A stretch of 11,962 nt of DNA from Ignavibacteria bacterium (GCA_041694835.1 JBGFRZ010000029.1:1-11962), one strand, 5' to 3'; shown: positions 6,320-11,962, counted from the stretch's first letter. Notes: generated from the sequence alone by a model not told the origin. A program made the numbers and translations.

Positions 6320-6371
6320 GTTTATATATATATACCAAAAAATTTGACGAGCGTCAAGGTTTTTTTATGTT

Positions 6372-6400
6372 TTGGAAAGTGAGGATAATTTATGTATAAT
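6372..6400 (+). promoter_or_regulatory. Putative sigma70 promoter for the kinase/RRE/rSAM operon
   Basis: TTGGAA (6372-6377), 17-nt spacer, TATAAT (6395-6400). Confidence 0.55.
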
Positions 6401-6576: not shown

Positions 6577-6612
6577 ATAATTTTAAGTGGTGCATTGGGG
6601 AAGAAGCGAAAT

Positions 6613-7425
6613 ATGTATTTTTCTTGCATACCCGAGATTTTTTCAATAAAGTTAAAAGCGGATAAAATAAAAAGACGATTTTTGGACGAAATTCGTGAAA
6701 AATACGCCGATTTCATAATAGAAAAACCACCGACGGGCGCAGGAATCGCTCACATTAAATTTGAAGTTTCGCGGGGGGGGTCTGTGGCGACGGGAAAATC
6801 CGGGAAACACGGAAATAAACATTTTGTGTTCAGCAGGAGGGATGTCGATTTTCTGTTTGATATTTCTAAACTGACGGGCGTATGCAGGATATCCGAAAAC
6901 ATATACTCTTTCGATTCTTTTATGAGGTTGCTTTGGAGTGTAATGCTCGTTCGCACTCAAGGAATGCTTTTGCACAGTGCGGCTTTAACGATGGGCGGGT
7001 ATGCATATCTCTTCGTAGGCCCTTCGGGTGCGGGAAAATCAACTGTCGTCAAGAATTCACTTGCAGGGAATTTCGGGGTTATTTCGGACGAGCTCGTTCC
7101 AGTTTTTATAAGAGATAAAAAATTGTTGACCTCAAGGAGTCCTTTCTGGGGCGAGTTGGAGCCGGTTAAAAATACTTCGGGCGCCTGTTTCGAGGTAAAG
7201 AAGATATTTTTTCTTTCCGGACATTCGGAGGCGTTGTCTGTTCGTCGGGTATTTCAAGATGATGCCGTCGGCTCCCTGCTGAAAAATCTCTTTTGGGTTT
7301 TTGAATGCCCCGCGCTTTCGGAAAATATTCTTGGATTGGCTGGATGGATATACGAGAAGGCGCTTTGCAAAAAAATTTTTTTCAGAAAGGATTTTATTCC
7401 GACGGAGGAGTTTTTGAATTTATGA
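6613..7425 (+). CDS. HPr-kinase-related P-loop protein of the type found in RiPP clusters (ScmC/PadeK-like)
   Basis: LLHSAAL, Walker A GPSGAGKST, ISDE and SPFWGE motifs. Start is uncertain (TTG 6595 or ATG 6613). Its stop overlaps the PqqD start (ATGA). Confidence 0.8.
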   Translation: MYFSCIPEIFSIKLKADKIKRRFLDEIREKYADFIIEKPPTGAGIAHIKFEVSRGGSVATGKSGKHGNKHFVFSRRDVDFLFDISKLTGVCRISENIYSFDSFMRLLWSVMLVRTQGMLLHSAALTMGGYAYLFVGPSGAGKSTVVKNSLAGNFGVISDELVPVFIRDKKLLTSRSPFWGELEPVKNTSGACFEVKKIFFLSGHSEALSVRRVFQDDAVGSLLKNLFWVFECPALSENILGLAGWIYEKALCKKIFFRKDFIPTEEFLNL

Positions 7426-7673
7426 GGATTATAAAAGGTGTCGCGCACAGGAAAATCGATGGCAGGGTTTATGTTGTTGATTCAAAAAATTCGTCTCTCC
7501 ACTCATTGAATGAAACTGGAAGTTATATATGGGAGCGTCTTGCCGCCGGGTCTGACGAAAAAAAAATCGCAGCATCAATCGCTTCCAGGTATGATATCCC
7601 TGAAGCCGACGCCGTTAAAGATGTTTCGGATTTCATAAAAAAACTTAAAGCGAAAAATTTGGTTGAGCCATAA
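7422..7673 (+). CDS. PqqD-family RiPP recognition element (RRE), 83 aa
   Basis: MRIIKGVAHRKIDGRVYVVD...LHSLNETGSYIWERL....IAASIASRYDI....AVKDVSDFIKKLKAKNLV. SD GGAGGA at 7404-7409. ATG 7422 overlaps the upstream TGA. Confidence 0.92.
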   Translation: MRIIKGVAHRKIDGRVYVVDSKNSSLHSLNETGSYIWERLAAGSDEKKIAASIASRYDIPEADAVKDVSDFIKKLKAKNLVEP

Positions 7674-7813
7674 GAATGGTGAAACGAAGATATAATCGTG
7701 GCGGTCCGTCCCACGGAGATAGTTCATTTTTGCTGTGCATAATGCGTCATTGTGATGCTATCAAGTGATAACACCTTACAAAGGCGCTCTGACATCCTGC
7801 CACGACAACAATT

Positions 7814-8848
7814 ATGATAGCAAACGAGCTTTTCGATAAAACATACAAAAAGGGCATACCATTATACACCTTATTTGAACTAACATACAGATGCAACCTC
7901 CGATGCAGGCATTGCTATATCCCGGAAGTCGACAGGAAAACCGCTGAACTTGAAACAAGCAGGGTGAAGATGGTTATAAAGGATATATCCTTGCTTGGGG
8001 GTCTTTATATGGTTTTTACGGGCGGCGAGGTTTTCTTGAGAGGTGATATCTTTGAACTTTGTAAGTTTGCAAAGGGACTCGGTTTTTTCGTAATAGTTTT
8101 TACGAACGGGACGCTTCTTGACGCAAAAAAGATATCCGGACTCAAAGATGTCGGGGTTGACAAAGTTGAAATAAGTCTCTACGGCGACAAGGTTGCCCAC
8201 GACTATATCACGCGCAAAAAAAACTCCTATGAAAGAACTGTCAGGGCTGTAAAGGAGATGAAAAAACTTGGCATCGACGTGTGCATAAAATCGCCTTTGA
8301 TGAGCATTAATTTGAAGGACAGGAGATTTCTTGAAAATTTTGCAAAATTGCTGGGTATAAATTGTAAATTCGATGCTGTAGTTACCCCGAAAAACGATGG
8401 CGATGATTCACCCGTGCGATATAATCTGTCACGAAAAGAACTGAAAAAAATTTTTGCAGAATCAAAAACGAAATATCGAAGTTATGCGGGTGAAAAATTC
8501 GATATACAGAACTCTTTATCTTGCTCGGCGGGAAGAAATATCGTCGGCATAACCCCTTCCGGAAAAGTTTTTCCATGCATCCAGCTCCCTTATTTTCTCG
8601 GCGATTTGAATAAAAGCGGTTTTGCGGACATATGGCGCAAAAGAAAGTTGGATTTTTCTCAAAAAAGAAATCTCAAAAAGTATACGCTCTGTCTGGAATG
8701 CGGCTATCTTAATGACTGCAACCGGTGTCCAGGCCTGGCTCTTTTAGAGTCGGACGACATATACGGCTGTTCAAAAACAGCGAAATTCCTGGCTAAAATA
8801 GGAAAGAGGTTAGAGGTTAGAGGTGAGAGGTCAGAGGTGAGAAGTTAG
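7814..8848 (+). CDS. Radical SAM / SPASM-domain peptide maturase
   Basis: CNLRCRHC (CxxxCxxC), FTGGE and FTNGTLL. SPASM region CSAGR...GKVFPC...CLECGYLNDCNRCPG...YGC has 7 Cys. The last ~13 codons are encoded by a heptamer repeat. Confidence 0.93.
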   Translation: MIANELFDKTYKKGIPLYTLFELTYRCNLRCRHCYIPEVDRKTAELETSRVKMVIKDISLLGGLYMVFTGGEVFLRGDIFELCKFAKGLGFFVIVFTNGTLLDAKKISGLKDVGVDKVEISLYGDKVAHDYITRKKNSYERTVRAVKEMKKLGIDVCIKSPLMSINLKDRRFLENFAKLLGINCKFDAVVTPKNDGDDSPVRYNLSRKELKKIFAESKTKYRSYAGEKFDIQNSLSCSAGRNIVGITPSGKVFPCIQLPYFLGDLNKSGFADIWRKRKLDFSQKRNLKKYTLCLECGYLNDCNRCPGLALLESDDIYGCSKTAKFLAKIGKRLEVRGERSEVRS

Positions 8849-9060
8849 AGGTGAGTTTTTTCTCTTTTCTCTTCTCTCTTCTCTCTTCTCTGTCCTCTGA
8901 CTTCTGCCCTTGTGCTCCTGCATCCTGTATCGGTTCTGAACTCGTCTCTGTCCTCTGTTCCCTGTCCTCTGTCCTCTCGTCTCTGACCTCTGACCTCTGA
9001 CCTCTGTCCTCTGACTTCTGCTCTTGTGCCCTTGTGCTCTTGTGCACTTACGCACTTTCC
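8805..9060. repeat. Inverted heptamer/octamer tandem array between the rSAM gene and the precursor
   Basis: AGAGGTN x7 (8805-8853, one unit AGAAGTT), then TCTCTTC, TGTCCTC, TGACCTC and CTTGTGCN units. Confidence 0.9.
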
Positions 9061-9083
9061 TGCTCTATGAAATAAAAATTCTC

Positions 9084-9114
9084 TTGAAATTTGCCCAAAA
9101 TTTGTGTATATAAT
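9084..9114 (+). promoter_or_regulatory. Possible internal promoter for the precursor gene
   Basis: TTGAAA (9084-9089) and TATAAT (9109-9114) in an AT-rich stretch. The 19-nt spacer is suboptimal. Confidence 0.35.
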
Positions 9115-9137
9115 TTAGTTAAGGATAAGGAGGCAAA

Positions 9138-9290
9138 ATGGGAAAAACAAATGAGAAAAAAAAGCATTACAAAAAGCCGGAGATTAGAACAGAAAAGATA
9201 TTCGAAACAGCAGCGCTTTCCTGTGGAAAATGCACATCAGGCAACCCTGTTTTTAAAAGCGCCTGCAATATAGCGCCGAGACTTTCTTGA
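9138..9290 (+). CDS. Putative RiPP precursor peptide, 50 aa: MGKTNEKKKHYKKPEIRTEKIFETAALSCGKCTSGNPVFKSACNIAPRLS
   Basis: Strong SD TAAGGAGG (9126-9133), ATG 9138, TGA 9288-9290. Lys-rich leader with YxxP-x-I motif and a core with 3 Cys. Lies between the rSAM/SPASM and peptidase genes, and the next ATG is 3 nt after its stop. Confidence 0.88.
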   Translation: MGKTNEKKKHYKKPEIRTEKIFETAALSCGKCTSGNPVFKSACNIAPRLS

Positions 9291-9293
9291 AAA

Positions 9294-9638
9294 ATGTCAA
9301 GAACCGTATTTGCAGTTAAAACATCGGGCGGATGTATGAGGCCATTCATAGGAAGTGGTCGATTTGTTTTTATTCAGCGAAAGGAAAGATATAACTCGGG
9401 CGATGTAGTTTTTTACAGCTTGAGAGGTCAAAAATATATACACAGAATCGTAAAAATGAACAATAATGAAGTTGTCGTGTCCGATGATTGCGGGATAACG
9501 ACTCCTGTAAGAATTTCTTGTCATGACATAGTCGGTATTTGCCACACAGGATTGAATGGATATTGTGGTTTTTTATACAACTTTTTTACCAGATGGGCAT
9601 TTGCTTTGCGGGGAAAAATCCAATTGTCGAAGCTTTAA
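9294..9638 (+). CDS. S24/S26 (signal peptidase I-like) protein, putative leader peptidase
   Basis: GGCMRPFI..G (cf. GxSMxP), GDVVFY, IHRIVK and DIVG motifs. No N-terminal TM anchor. Confidence 0.78.
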   Translation: MSRTVFAVKTSGGCMRPFIGSGRFVFIQRKERYNSGDVVFYSLRGQKYIHRIVKMNNNEVVVSDDCGITTPVRISCHDIVGICHTGLNGYCGFLYNFFTRWAFALRGKIQLSKL

Positions 9639-11962
9639 TGAAGAAAAACTTTGCATTGATTATTATCGGCTTTTGTCTGCCTCTTACTGTCTGCAAAAGC
9701 CTTTCCGCCGCAACAAGGATAAAAACCGTTGAATATAATTTCGGTGTCGGGTCCTCAACAGGAGTGTCGTCAGGGGCGACTTATAGTTTCCCGACGCTCA
9801 ATTTCCGACTGCCCGACGCAACAACTATAAGGAAAGTATGGCTTGAACTTGACGGTCTTTCGGAAAGCGCTGTAAACACGAACATAAACGGTATTGACAT
9901 ATTTTTTAACCAGGGAACTTCCGCAACTACTATCCGAGACACCTTCCCCAACGCTATAATAGTCTACGGCACTGGTGATGAGAGTTTGAGATTTCATGTC
10001 AAATGTGAAATTCCGGGGTCAGTTTTTGCCAATGTGACATCATACAACAACTATACCGCTGCTGTAAGGTTAACATCGGCCTCCGGGCTTCTTTTCAATA
10101 TGCTAGTGCTGAAACTTTATATAACATACGAATACGATGACACCGCACTGATACAGGTCAACACGGTGAGGTTCCCGCTTAAAGCGAACTGGGCAGGCTC
10201 AATAGCATCAGCTCAAGGCGCCTCAGCTCCTGGAACAATTCCATTCACATACCAAACCGATATAGCAGAAAGCGGTTTTGCGAATTTCCTGATACATCAG
10301 CAGTGGTTTGAGATAAATGGTCATCGACTTTCCGGCGGAGTTACAACCGACGGAACTATAAGGGCACGTATAGGCACAAACGCATCCGCCCCGATGATGA
10401 CACTTGATGGCTCACTGATAGATTCCTACGACTTCCTTTATCTTACTTCAACAGGGACGATGAGCGGTTTTTCTGTGAACACTCAGCAGACGTTGAATAT
10501 TGAAACAACCCAGAATACGTTCTTTAATCTCGGTGGCGAGTGTGTTGTAACATATGAGTTTTCAAGGGATGCCGGAACTAAAACAAGGACGGTCTATTAT
10601 CTTGTAGGTCAGTCGACGGCACCCGGAATAGCGTTTCAATTCCCGGATGTCAACTTATTTCTTGAAGAGAGTGGTATTAGTTTCAGGGCGCTTTATTCAC
10701 GCATTCATGGAACTTACAACTCCGCAACCGCAGGAAATGTCACATGGGGGTACTCGGTAGGCGGCACCTCAGGGACAGCGCAGATATATTCTCATCAGAC
10801 ACAGTCACTATCAATAGGCAATCATCCGTTTTTTCTTGATTTATGGTCGGCAAACCCGGCTGTAAACTGGTCTAACGGCGCTCCGATAAGGGTTGCTTAC
10901 ACTCCCGCTAACACTACAAATACTGGCACTATGGGCGCGGAACTTATAGTTACTTATCAATACACCTCCGCGGCGAAGTGGACTGAGTTCTACAAAACAT
11001 TCGCCTATCAGGCGAACCACGGGGTCATAACATCTACATCTATTGCTTTTTCGCTCTTTTCACCGACGATAGAGATACCGCAAGGAAGAAAGGTAAGAAA
11101 CTCAGGGTATCTGGTGGGCGCCTTCAAGGTTCACAGGAACGCCGACACTATTACCACTGGTTACCGTATAACCCAGAATATAAACGCCCTTGCAGCACAA
11201 CTCCATACCCCGAGAACATCCGCAGAGGCAACATACACCACCGGCATTTACATCGACCCACTTCGACTTTTAACAACGACCAGTGCAACATTGACAGCGA
11301 ATGTAAGTGTGTCGGCAAACCAGATATTCCCTTGTGCGAATGCGAACATAACATATTCTTATTTCCCGCCGCCCAACACGCCAACCGCGCTTAATCAGTA
11401 TAAAGCCGACGGAACGACCTTCATTACTACGGGCACATGGACAAACCAGTCAACAGTTGTCCTGAAATGTAATATGTCTTCAAGAATTTCTGATACGTTG
11501 ACACCTGTTTTTGAAGTGAAACCTGTTGGGCAGACGTTTAATGGGGCAAACCTTTCAACAGGGACTGCAGTTAGTTATCCCGGAACTAGTGTTATTGTTG
11601 GTTCTGTGACAGTTACAGGTCTTTCCGACGGGACTACATACCACTGGCGTGCGAGGGTTATTTCACCGAATGGTTCGTCTTTATGGTCAAGTTTCGGCGG
11701 TAATCCTGACGGACAGATTGACTTTGGGGTTGACCGCAGCTCGCCGACCGTTTCGTTAGTATCGCCGCTTAATAATTCTGCCACAAATCAACTCTCTTTG
11801 ACTTTCCAATGGACGGGAACGGAGTTTCCTTCCGGGTCAAACTCCGGCATAAACGGCTATGAGTTTTATATCTCCACCACTTCAGATTTTTCCGTCTTTA
11901 CCTCTTCAGAGTTTGTAGTTGCTCCATCGCTTAATCGCTCCATCGCTCAATCGCTGTATTAC
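9638..11962 (+). CDS. Large secreted Thr/Ser/Gly-rich beta-sandwich protein with FN3/Ig-like modules, 3'-truncated (at least 775 aa)
   Basis: ATG 9638 overlaps the upstream TAA (TAATG). Manual translation is open to the window end: signal peptide MKKNFALIIIGFCLPLTVCKSLSA, later GLSDGTTYHWRARV (FN3-like) and DRSSPTVSLVSPLNNS...FQWTG...SGINGYEFYIS (Ig-like). Confidence 0.88.
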   Translation, partial: MKKNFALIIIGFCLPLTVCKSLSAATRIKTVEYNFGVGSSTGVSSGATYSFPTLNFRLPDATTIRKVWLELDGLSESAVNTNINGIDIFFNQGTSATTIRDTFPNAIIVYGTGDESLRFHVKCEIPGSVFANVTSYNNYTAAVRLTSASGLLFNMLVLKLYITYEYDDTALIQVNTVRFPLKANWAGSIASAQGASAPGTIPFTYQTDIAESGFANFLIHQQWFEINGHRLSGGVTTDGTIRARIGTNASAPMMTLDGSLIDSYDFLYLTSTGTMSGFSVNTQQTLNIETTQNTFFNLGGECVVTYEFSRDAGTKTRTVYYLVGQSTAPGIAFQFPDVNLFLEESGISFRALYSRIHGTYNSATAGNVTWGYSVGGTSGTAQIYSHQTQSLSIGNHPFFLDLWSANPAVNWSNGAPIRVAYTPANTTNTGTMGAELIVTYQYTSAAKWTEFYKTFAYQANHGVITSTSIAFSLFSPTIEIPQGRKVRNSGYLVGAFKVHRNADTITTGYRITQNINALAAQLHTPRTSAEATYTTGIYIDPLRLLTTTSATLTANVSVSANQIFPCANANITYSYFPPPNTPTALNQYKADGTTFITTGTWTNQSTVVLKCNMSSRISDTLTPVFEVKPVGQTFNGANLSTGTAVSYPGTSVIVGSVTVTGLSDGTTYHWRARVISPNGSSLWSSFGGNPDGQIDFGVDRSSPTVSLVSPLNNSATNQLSLTFQWTGTEFPSGSNSGINGYEFYISTTSDFSVFTSSEFVVAPSLNRSIAQSLYY

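Follow-up and report, generated by a model that had tools for sequence, protein, structure and literature searches.

The closest characterised system for a processing module of kinase, recognition element and SipW-like peptidase is, by analogy, that of the linear polyphosphorylated peptides (LPP), whose clusters (LppA/K/B/S/D/N) occur in Bacillota and were called restricted to Bacillota (Popov et al., Nat Commun 2026, PMC13381572). In the parts of that paper from which all our comparisons with LPP are drawn, the leader follows the pattern YxxPxVLxHQxIxFETxxS and is cut after T(-1) by LppS (S29/H68/D93), a reaction that requires LppB. Polyphosphorylation by LppK takes place at Ser3 of the core, and the unphosphorylated precursor is poorly cut. 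The product is described there as linear and without other primary modification, with variable cores of 35-200 residues, and the terms radical SAM (radical S-adenosylmethionine), rSAM and SPASM do not occur in the text of the paper. As described in parts of two other reports, the HprK homologs of lasso peptide clusters phosphorylate the C-terminal Ser of the precursor, the rest of the peptide mattering little (PMC8498205, PMC6993621). We compared with these systems a cassette of five genes located at positions 6613-9638 of a stretch of 11,962 nucleotides deposited under the name Ignavibacteria bacterium (GCA_041694835.1, JBGFRZ010000029.1:1-11962). This whole stretch is called the window below, and the genome to which it belongs, which is metagenome-assembled and is placed here in Elusimicrobiota (class Endomicrobiia), measures 1.9 Mb and is 97% complete.

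It is probable, in our judgement, that the cassette is an operon for a ribosomally synthesised and post-translationally modified peptide (RiPP), conserved in the phylum Elusimicrobiota, that cross-links, phosphorylates and trims a small peptide with three cysteines. The peptide probably works with a giant surface protein and not as a free antibiotic. Judged from its sequence, the locus is an uncharacterised relative of LPP and of the phosphorylated-lasso processing module that contains, in addition, a radical SAM enzyme. The sequences show directly which genes are present, how far they are conserved, which catalytic motifs and folds they encode, and in what order and company they recur, whereas the modifications, the cleavage and the role of the peptide are predicted.

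All five open reading frames (ORFs) are on the plus strand, in the places given by an earlier interpretation made from the DNA alone (the sequence-only reading), and the tight kinase/recognition element and precursor/peptidase junctions that it reported were found again. The first ORF encodes an HprK-related P-loop kinase-like protein (6613-7425; 270 residues from the ATG at 6613, with an alternative TTG at 6595), and its TGA overlaps, as ATGA at 7422-7425, the ATG of a stand-alone RiPP recognition element (RRE) of the PqqD family (7422-7673; 83 residues; Pfam PqqD 6.1e-17). The radical SAM/SPASM maturase gene (7814-8848; 344 residues) is followed by that of the precursor peptide (9138-9290; 50 residues), with AAGGAGG 7 nucleotides 5' of its ATG. 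The gene of a minimal Sec11/SipW-like S26 peptidase (9294-9638; 114 residues) starts 3 nucleotides past the precursor stop. The sequence-only reading ended the unit at 9638, which is too early, since the ATG of a giant secreted protein gene, at 9638, overlaps the TAA of the peptidase gene. The 5' part of this giant gene occupies positions 9638-11962 of the plus strand and runs off the end of the contig.

Comparison of the cassette with LPP showed three kinds of protein in common, namely an RRE of lasso type that is a separate protein, a kinase resembling HprK and, for the leader, an S26 peptidase of archaeal/SipW type with a Ser/His/Asp arrangement. The peptidase of the cassette belongs to this type by its sequence, and its action on the precursor is predicted. 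The kinase is HprK-like by its motifs, by matches to the HprK_rel_A model and by its fold, while its likeness to LppK is by description. In both systems the lasso-B1-type RRE is accompanied by a [Y/W]xxP leader, YxxP being present in 120 of 120 precursor homologs of the present family. The leaders are also alike further on, since Y-x-x-P-x-[VI] is followed by [IV]-x-F-E-T in LPP and by [IV]-[FI]-E-[TQ] here, and both systems are found at cell-surface loci (capsule for LPP, giant surface proteins for the present cassette).

There are also differences from LPP, as far as it is described in the parts of the paper used. A radical SAM/SPASM gene belongs to the cassette itself, and neither an LppN-type nucleoside triphosphate (NTP) transferase nor an MsbA-like exporter such as LppD was present among the window ORFs. 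The 38 neighbour ORFs of eight related loci also contained no NTP transferase or MsbA-like exporter, apart from an ATP-binding cassette (ABC) fragment at an edge and a CCA-adding-type enzyme. The spacing between YxxP and FET is two residues shorter here (YxxPx[IV]xx[EQ]K[IV][FI]E[TQ]AAL[AS]). Ser3 of the core is not conserved, a C-terminal Ser being invariant instead, and the core is conserved and only 21-26 residues long. The peptidase lacks the N-terminal helix of LppS, its nucleophile being residue 14 and not 29, and it has a C-terminal helix; the nucleophile is a Cys in the clade of the window, and the phylum is Elusimicrobiota.

The phosphorylated lasso peptides paeninodin and pseudomycoidin, in the parts of the reports cited above, resemble the present family by a B1-like RRE, a YxxP leader and a precursor that ends in Ser. 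However, no lasso cyclase or B2 cysteine protease was found in the 12 window ORFs scanned, and the radical SAM/SPASM enzyme and the S26 peptidase stand in their place. The sequence-only reading had seen no lasso cyclase, YcaO, LanM or ABC exporter, and we also found none in the remaining large window ORFs. Sactipeptide and ranthipeptide systems (SkfB, PqqE-type enzymes) share with the cassette the CX3CX2C motif, the Cys residues of the SPASM auxiliary clusters, a Cys-containing core and RRE-assisted recognition, but no curated cutoff was reached, the core is conserved throughout the phylum instead of hypervariable, and a kinase and an S26 peptidase are added. The peptidase itself resembles Sec11/SipW signal peptidases I in its S24/S26 fold and in the GxSMxP, HR and DD motifs seen in comparison with SEC11A. 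It differs from them by a catalytic domain of about 85 residues, by the absence of an N-terminal anchor and by a Cys in place of Ser in 14 of 40 orthologs.

Conservation of the cassette

Orthologs of the radical SAM enzyme were found in 16 of 40 relatives, with E-values of 1.6e-102 to 8.3e-71 and 39-50% identity. The sequence-only reading had proposed a search for neighbourhoods with all five genes, and six of the seven ortholog loci first fetched contained them, in the same order. In the seventh genome (G003) the precursor, the peptidase and the giant are encoded together on a contig apart from the kinase, PqqD and radical SAM genes. The recurrence of the five genes is far beyond chance. Together with the domain matches and the folds, it bears out the interpretation of the locus as a RiPP-type maturation cassette in which a genuine precursor is encoded with a kinase, a stand-alone RRE, a radical SAM/SPASM enzyme and an S26-type leader peptidase.

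The precursor was present in 22 of the 121 other genomes of the class (0/89 in family f4 and 22/32 elsewhere) and in 64 of 400 other Elusimicrobiota genomes sampled, and it was common in family f24 (31/47). It was not found in the two largest families of the phylum, f4 and f20 (0/118 for the latter), and the cassette is therefore not essential. In the 65 genomes with a match, the precursor gene was in single copy in all but one.

A scan of species representatives gave 41 precursor loci, which were assigned by their record titles to Elusimicrobia/Endomicrobia (36), Planctomycetota (2), Deltaproteobacteria (1) and unnamed bacteria (2). Profile hidden Markov models (HMMs) detected the peptidase in 37 of these loci, nearly always directly 3' of the precursor. 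The exceptions to this adjacency were L078, where an IS200-type transposase ORF lies between the two genes, and L062, where they are separated by a gap of about 0.4 kb. In the remaining four loci the peptidase was not detected; two of these lie at contig ends and two are those of Planctomycetota. For the kinase the count was 34 of 41, and the seven loci without a match were four on truncated contigs, that of G003, which is split, and again the two from Planctomycetota. The gene order in the class Elusimicrobia is kinase-PqqD-precursor-peptidase-radical SAM, and this location of the peptidase gene between those of the precursor and the radical SAM enzyme indicates that it is part of the peptide cassette and does not belong to the giant gene only.

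In the protein database, 1,965 clusters matched the precursor at E<=1e-3. Among the best 120 of these, the named ones were all annotated as 'hypothetical protein' and none carried a Pfam domain. No description of the cassette was found among the literature entries listed by searches aimed at it; the supplementary SpI clusters of PMC13381572 might include some that are linked to a radical SAM gene.

The precursor and its enzymes

The precursor matched no Pfam or NCBIfam family. Its leader, YKKPEIRTEKIFET, is followed by AALS and then by the core, which runs from CGKC to the PRLS end. The consensus of the family is M-(K-rich)-Y-x-K-P-x-[IV]-x-[ST]-[EQ]-K-[IV]-[FI]-E-[TQ]-A-A-L-[AS]-C-G-K-C-x-x-G-N-P-x-x-x-x-x-C-x-x-x-x-[RK]-x-S. 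Comparison of the best 120 homologs showed that three Cys residues and a C-terminal Ser are present in all 120, that CGKC is found at the start of the Cys core in 119, and that an R or K is located two residues before the C-terminal Ser in 115. In every one of the 120 the Tyr of YxxP is exactly 18 residues ahead of the first Cys. Immediately before this Cys, 108 of the 119 homologs readable at that position have Ala, 10 have Ser and one has Gly. The precursor has the highest identity of the cassette proteins (45-77%), compared with 22-41% for the kinase, 29-47% for PqqD, 28-48% for the radical SAM enzyme and 22-45% for the peptidase. The conservation of its core is that of a housekeeping protein, an unusual feature for a RiPP.

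The relatives from Planctomycetota (L076 and L077) keep the leader (Y..P...SEKVFEQAALS-C) and have a different core, which is rich in Thr and Ser and ends in Ser. The presence of the same leader with a different core marks the N-terminal part as leader. Radical SAM and PqqD genes are nearby at both loci, where no HprK-like kinase or S26 peptidase was found. A Hanks-type kinase-like ORF is located on the opposite strand in each of them.

Two positions of cleavage are considered. A cut after F-E-[TQ], by analogy with LPP, may leave a core of 26 residues, and a cut after A-L-[AS] may leave the core of 22 residues assumed in the sequence-only reading. Signal peptidases follow a rule of small residues at -3 and -1, with which the A-L-[AS] cut fits. 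A cross-linked, phosphorylated product, proposed by the sequence-only reading with phosphorylation as a possibility, stands as the most reasonable prediction; by the precedent of LPP its size may be 26 residues instead of about 22.

The kinase of the window matched the NCBIfam models HprK_rel_A (9.3e-6) and ScmC (7.3e-4), both far under the cutoff. When 21 orthologs were compared with the same models, HprK_rel_A matched 17, ScmC 14 and HprK_rel_B 10. The invariant residues are H121, G136, G141 and K142 (P-loop), and D159 of the SD[ED] motif. The AlphaFold2 model of the protein had a predicted local distance difference test (pLDDT) score of 89.8, and Foldseek matched it to phosphoenolpyruvate carboxykinase (PEPCK) and to HprK/P. 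A profile of the kinase run against the PDB sequences gave P-loop matches only, and the likeness to solved HprK/P and PEPCK structures was brought out by the fold search.

The best NCBIfam match of the RRE was to a lasso PqqD chaperone (NF033530), with 46.1 bits for a cutoff of 70, and another lasso model gave 36.9. Among solved structures, those of the lasso RREs TbiB1 (1.5e-5) and TfuB1 (7.6e-5) are closest to it. The maturase matched Pfam Radical_SAM (8.9e-24) and SPASM (3.2e-9) above the gathering scores, and its nearest solved relatives are PqqE (6.8e-20) and SkfB (5e-11). Residues C27, C31 and C34 (CX3CX2C) are kept in 37-38 of 38 orthologs, and C237, C255, C293, C296, C302 and C305 of the SPASM region in 38 of 38. 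No cassette protein reached an NCBIfam equivalog cutoff. The HMM runs proposed with the sequence-only reading thus gave Pfam matches for the RRE, SPASM and S24/S26, while the ScmC-F models remained far below cutoff.

The peptidase matched Pfam S24 above the gathering score (2.7e-6) and reached 28.9 against a cutoff of 51.85 for the NCBIfam signal-peptidase model. Of its 29 orthologs examined, 27 were matched by sigpep_I_arch, 11 by SipW and two by the model of the nickel superoxide dismutase (NiSOD) maturation protease. A profile search against the PDB gave human SEC11A (1.5e-7), with GxSMxP, HRV and DD aligned. The catalytic positions are Cys14 (in GGCMRP; codon 9333-9335), His50 and Asp65. 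The AlphaFold2 model (pLDDT 91.3) consisted of a beta-barrel (residues 1-83), a C-terminal helix (89-113) and then basic residues, and Foldseek matched it to the LexA C-domain, UmuD' and SpsB. Compared with the features of signal peptidase I, the Ser-His(-Asp) arrangement has a Cys in the window and the membrane anchor at the N-terminus is absent. In class Elusimicrobia, the tail of the protein is short and basic and not hydrophobic. The absence of an N-terminal anchor, this short basic tail and the Cys nucleophile fit a cytoplasmic location of the small peptidase.

The nucleophile of 40 distinct peptidase orthologs was Cys in 14 (TGT/TGC) and Ser in 26 (AGC/AGT in 17, TCN in 9), with His and Asp invariant among them. 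The Ser/Cys exchange requires at least two changes on the peptidase tree, a single origin being possible. We also considered whether the leader residue located three positions before the LPP-type cut (F, or I/L) tracks the nucleophile (Cys or Ser). This looked perfect in the Endomicrobiia and failed across the phylum (nucleophile/leader residue: S/F 15, C/F 12, S/I 10, C/I 2, S/L 1), and the relation was rejected.

The giant neighbour, the proposed pathway and its rivals

The giant protein of the window begins with a signal peptide that ends in ...SLSA and continues with ATRIKTVEYNFG. Its orthologs reach 8,832 residues in G010 (L036/L080) and 4,161 residues in G039, in which the giant is fused to the peptidase. 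Over 3,277 residues of the G039 giant, Pfam gave only domains of Ig/fn3/LTD/SusE type (SusE, LTD, fn3 and Big_13). The C25 protease model (PF01364) had no match in five genomes, and none in the control genomes either. In six genomes, which belong to five families, a single reading frame covers the peptidase and the giant, the order in the fused proteins being peptidase, helix, basic loop, hydrophobic segment, A-x-A type site and R[IV]KTVE[WY]NFG. In a seventh genome (G043; L024/L050), the peptidase frame passes through the hydrophobic segment into the first part of the giant and stops after 242 residues, the remainder of the giant being in a different frame. The gene would otherwise be fused, and the interruption is due to a frameshift or to an error of assembly.

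The N-terminal domain of the giant was found in 35 other genomes of the 400, and 34 of these also have the precursor, counts that come from related and not independent genomes. The one genome with the domain and no precursor is an assembly of 340 contigs in which the radical SAM ortholog is present. Conversely, 30 precursor-bearing genomes are without the N-terminal domain of the giant, and an Endomicrobiia-type giant was not detected beside the peptidase in several 12-kb loci of class Elusimicrobia. The link of the cassette to surface proteins seems real, as far as the sequences indicate.

In the pathway that we propose, the stand-alone PqqD/RRE would bind the YxxPx[IV] motif of the leader, as suggested by its likeness to the lasso and LPP RREs, and would present the precursor to three enzymes. 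The radical SAM/SPASM enzyme would modify the core with its three Cys residues, most likely by the formation of Cys-derived thioether cross-links. The HprK-like kinase would phosphorylate a Ser, for which the invariant C-terminal Ser after R/K is the likeliest candidate by comparison with the lasso kinases. A cytoplasmic Sec11/SipW-type S26 peptidase, with a Cys nucleophile in the clade of the window, would then remove the leader by a cut after F-E-T, as in LPP, or after A-L-[AS], according to the signal-peptidase rule. The operon would run on into the gene of the giant secreted Ig/fn3-repeat protein, which appears to be translationally coupled to that of the peptidase. Binding of the leader by the RRE and its removal rest on homology to studied systems, while we infer the cross-linking and the phosphorylation.

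Several observations weigh against this pathway. The phosphorylation site is a guess, because LppK targets Ser3 of the core and not a C-terminal Ser, in the parts of PMC13381572 considered, and the matching position is Ala in 108 of 119 homologs of the present precursor. The invariant C-terminal Ser could matter to the radical SAM enzyme instead. The sequence matches of the kinase are weak and all far below the curated cutoffs, and the TM-scores of its fold are moderate (about 0.5 to PEPCK, 0.26-0.28 to HprK/P). The thioether cross-links are a predicted chemistry only, and the seventh Cys of the SPASM region in the window (C319) is kept by only 10 of 38 orthologs. A linked exporter was seen neither among the window ORFs nor, as a recurrent neighbour, among the 38 ORFs of eight related loci. 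The fusion of peptidase and giant also fits a role of the peptidase in the processing of the giant.

This last point leads to an explanation that we find rather unlikely, in which the S26-like peptidase serves the giant as its dedicated signal peptidase, like SipW with TasA, and another enzyme or none cuts the precursor. The overlap of the peptidase stop with the giant start, the single frame of the two genes in six genomes and the A-x-A type sites of the giants, located just before the conserved R[IV]KTVE[WY]NFG, are all in its favour, as are the best sequence relatives of the peptidase, which are signal peptidases of Sec11/SipW type, and the G003 arrangement, in which precursor, peptidase and giant stand apart from the other three genes. 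However, in the absence of an N-terminal anchor the catalytic domain should be cytoplasmic, and a signal peptidase would have to act on the other side of the membrane. In class Elusimicrobia, moreover, the peptidase with its short basic tail is encoded between the precursor and the radical SAM enzyme, in several 12-kb loci with no Endomicrobiia-type giant detected. The 30 precursor genomes without the giant domain point in the same direction, since the peptidase is nevertheless found with the precursor in 37 of 41 loci. A SipW-like peptidase is, in addition, an RRE-dependent RiPP leader peptidase in LPP, according to the parts of PMC13381572 used here. A cleavage before the first Cys would leave CGKC at the new N-terminus, and this brings in another explanation, according to which the product binds a metal or is a cofactor made from a peptide, comparable to pyrroloquinoline quinone (PQQ) or mycofactocin, or carries an N-terminal Cys hook like that of NiSOD, and is not a secreted cross-linked product. 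The core identity of 45-77% across the phylum, the presence of CGKC in 119 of 120 homologs and the single copy in at least 63 of 65 genomes would suit such a product, PqqE is the best solved relative of the radical SAM enzyme, the NiSOD maturation protease model matches two of 29 peptidase orthologs, and neither an exporter nor an immunity gene was linked to the cassette in the ORFs mentioned above. We nevertheless regard it as unlikely, given that no oxidoreductase, nor any other enzyme that might use such a cofactor, is regularly encoded beside the cassette, that the neighbours are surface proteins, that the Planctomycetota relatives keep the leader and change the core as ordinary RiPPs do, and that the cassette is missing from two large families.

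The sequence-only reading had compared the gene mix with SynChlorMet (Scm; NCBIfam TIGR04248-TIGR04251), which is known from comparative genomics only and is uncharacterised, as is the present cassette. Both contain an HprK-like protein (ScmC), a PqqD-like protein (ScmD) and radical SAM/SPASM enzymes, and weak ScmC matches were obtained with 14 of 21 kinase orthologs, the best of which (2.8e-10) was still under the cutoff. The resemblance did not hold when the models were applied to the proteins of the window. ScmC (TIGR04249) gave 18.9 bits against a cutoff of 125 and ScmD (TIGR04248) 20 against 100, while ScmE (TIGR04250) and ScmF (TIGR04251) gave 79.1 and 63.1 bits against 400 each. As all four models are far below their cutoffs, the cassette is not considered a member of this family, for which we would leave only a very slight chance. 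The cassette also has one radical SAM gene where Scm has two, its precursor is identified and matched no precursor family, and more kinase orthologs are matched by HprK_rel_A (17/21) than by ScmC. It includes an S26 peptidase, which to our knowledge is not part of the Scm definition. Returning to the RiPP operon that cross-links, phosphorylates and trims its peptide, we put forward one specific form of it tentatively, as a possibility short of an even chance. The conserved, single-copy modified peptide would be no antibiotic-type RiPP but a dedicated partner (for example a small subunit, anchor, assembly factor or signal) of the giant surface protein. Its maturation would occur at the membrane, through a Sec11-like peptidase of the cytoplasm, translationally coupled to the signal-anchor of the giant or physically joined to it.

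Surroundings of the cassette and significance

The genes located around the cassette vary between loci. In G039 (L034/L081), the genes after that of the giant encode a beta-propeller protein, which carries a type IX secretion tail, and a PorV-like protein. In four loci of class Elusimicrobia (L064, L065, L075 and L060), large pilin-like N_methyl proteins are encoded upstream of the cassette; downstream are an Rrf2 regulator and then secreted proteins rich in fn3 domains and longer than 1,279 residues. An ORF of about 278 residues with a P-loop (...ITGEYGxGKT...) is found between the peptidase and the giant in the loci of genus g4 (L004-L007). Most Endomicrobiia loci have an HD_5 gene (HD-GYP-type phosphohydrolase) directly 5' of the kinase (for example L036:5903-7054). 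The cassette of the window has no HD_5 neighbour, and genes of an M23 peptidase and a bactofilin are there on the opposite strand. Elsewhere in the window are genes for an OmpA-family protein, a FlgD-Ig protein and a Mem_trans transporter, and a tRNA-Ser (anticodon GGA) at 204-293 on the minus strand.

Two putative promoters on the plus strand, at 6344-6400 in the intergenic region of 315 nucleotides located 5' of the kinase, were recognised as matches to the consensus. These are TTGGAA-17-TATAAT (6372-6400, 10/12 matches) and TTGACG-16-TATGTT (6344-6371). A TTGAAA-N19-TATAAT sequence is located near the precursor, at 9084-9114; its spacer is beyond the rule of the promoter scan, and no precursor promoter is claimed.

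Between the radical SAM and precursor genes (8805-9049, strand unassigned) are arrays of a 7-nucleotide AGAGGTN repeat followed by their complement, for which an RNA hairpin of -99 kcal/mol (z = -8.6) is predicted. The arrays code for the final 15 or so residues of the radical SAM protein. A role as a cassette-specific regulatory hairpin was rejected, because 88 copies were counted in the genome, compared with 0 for a reversed control, and AGAGGTN is therefore a dispersed genomic repeat. A local effect of the arrays on the mRNA is possible.

The leader-processing module of the cassette is, as far as its sequences indicate, one already known from LPP, and what appears new is the radical SAM enzyme, the conserved core, the Cys peptidase and the coupling to the giant. 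Leader processing by a SipW-type peptidase, an RRE and an HprK-type kinase would thus be extended from Bacillota to Elusimicrobiota, where the same module is accompanied by a radical SAM/SPASM enzyme and where its peptidase, in the clade of the window, has a Cys in place of the Ser nucleophile. With five small, clearly delimited genes, the pathway lends itself to direct testing by co-expression followed by mass spectrometry. The coupling and fusion to giant surface proteins point to a role in the cell envelope, in a phylum with almost no cultured members. If the modified peptide is indeed a partner of the giant, it would represent a new functional class for radical SAM-modified peptides, with a natural switch from Ser to Cys in an S26 peptidase.

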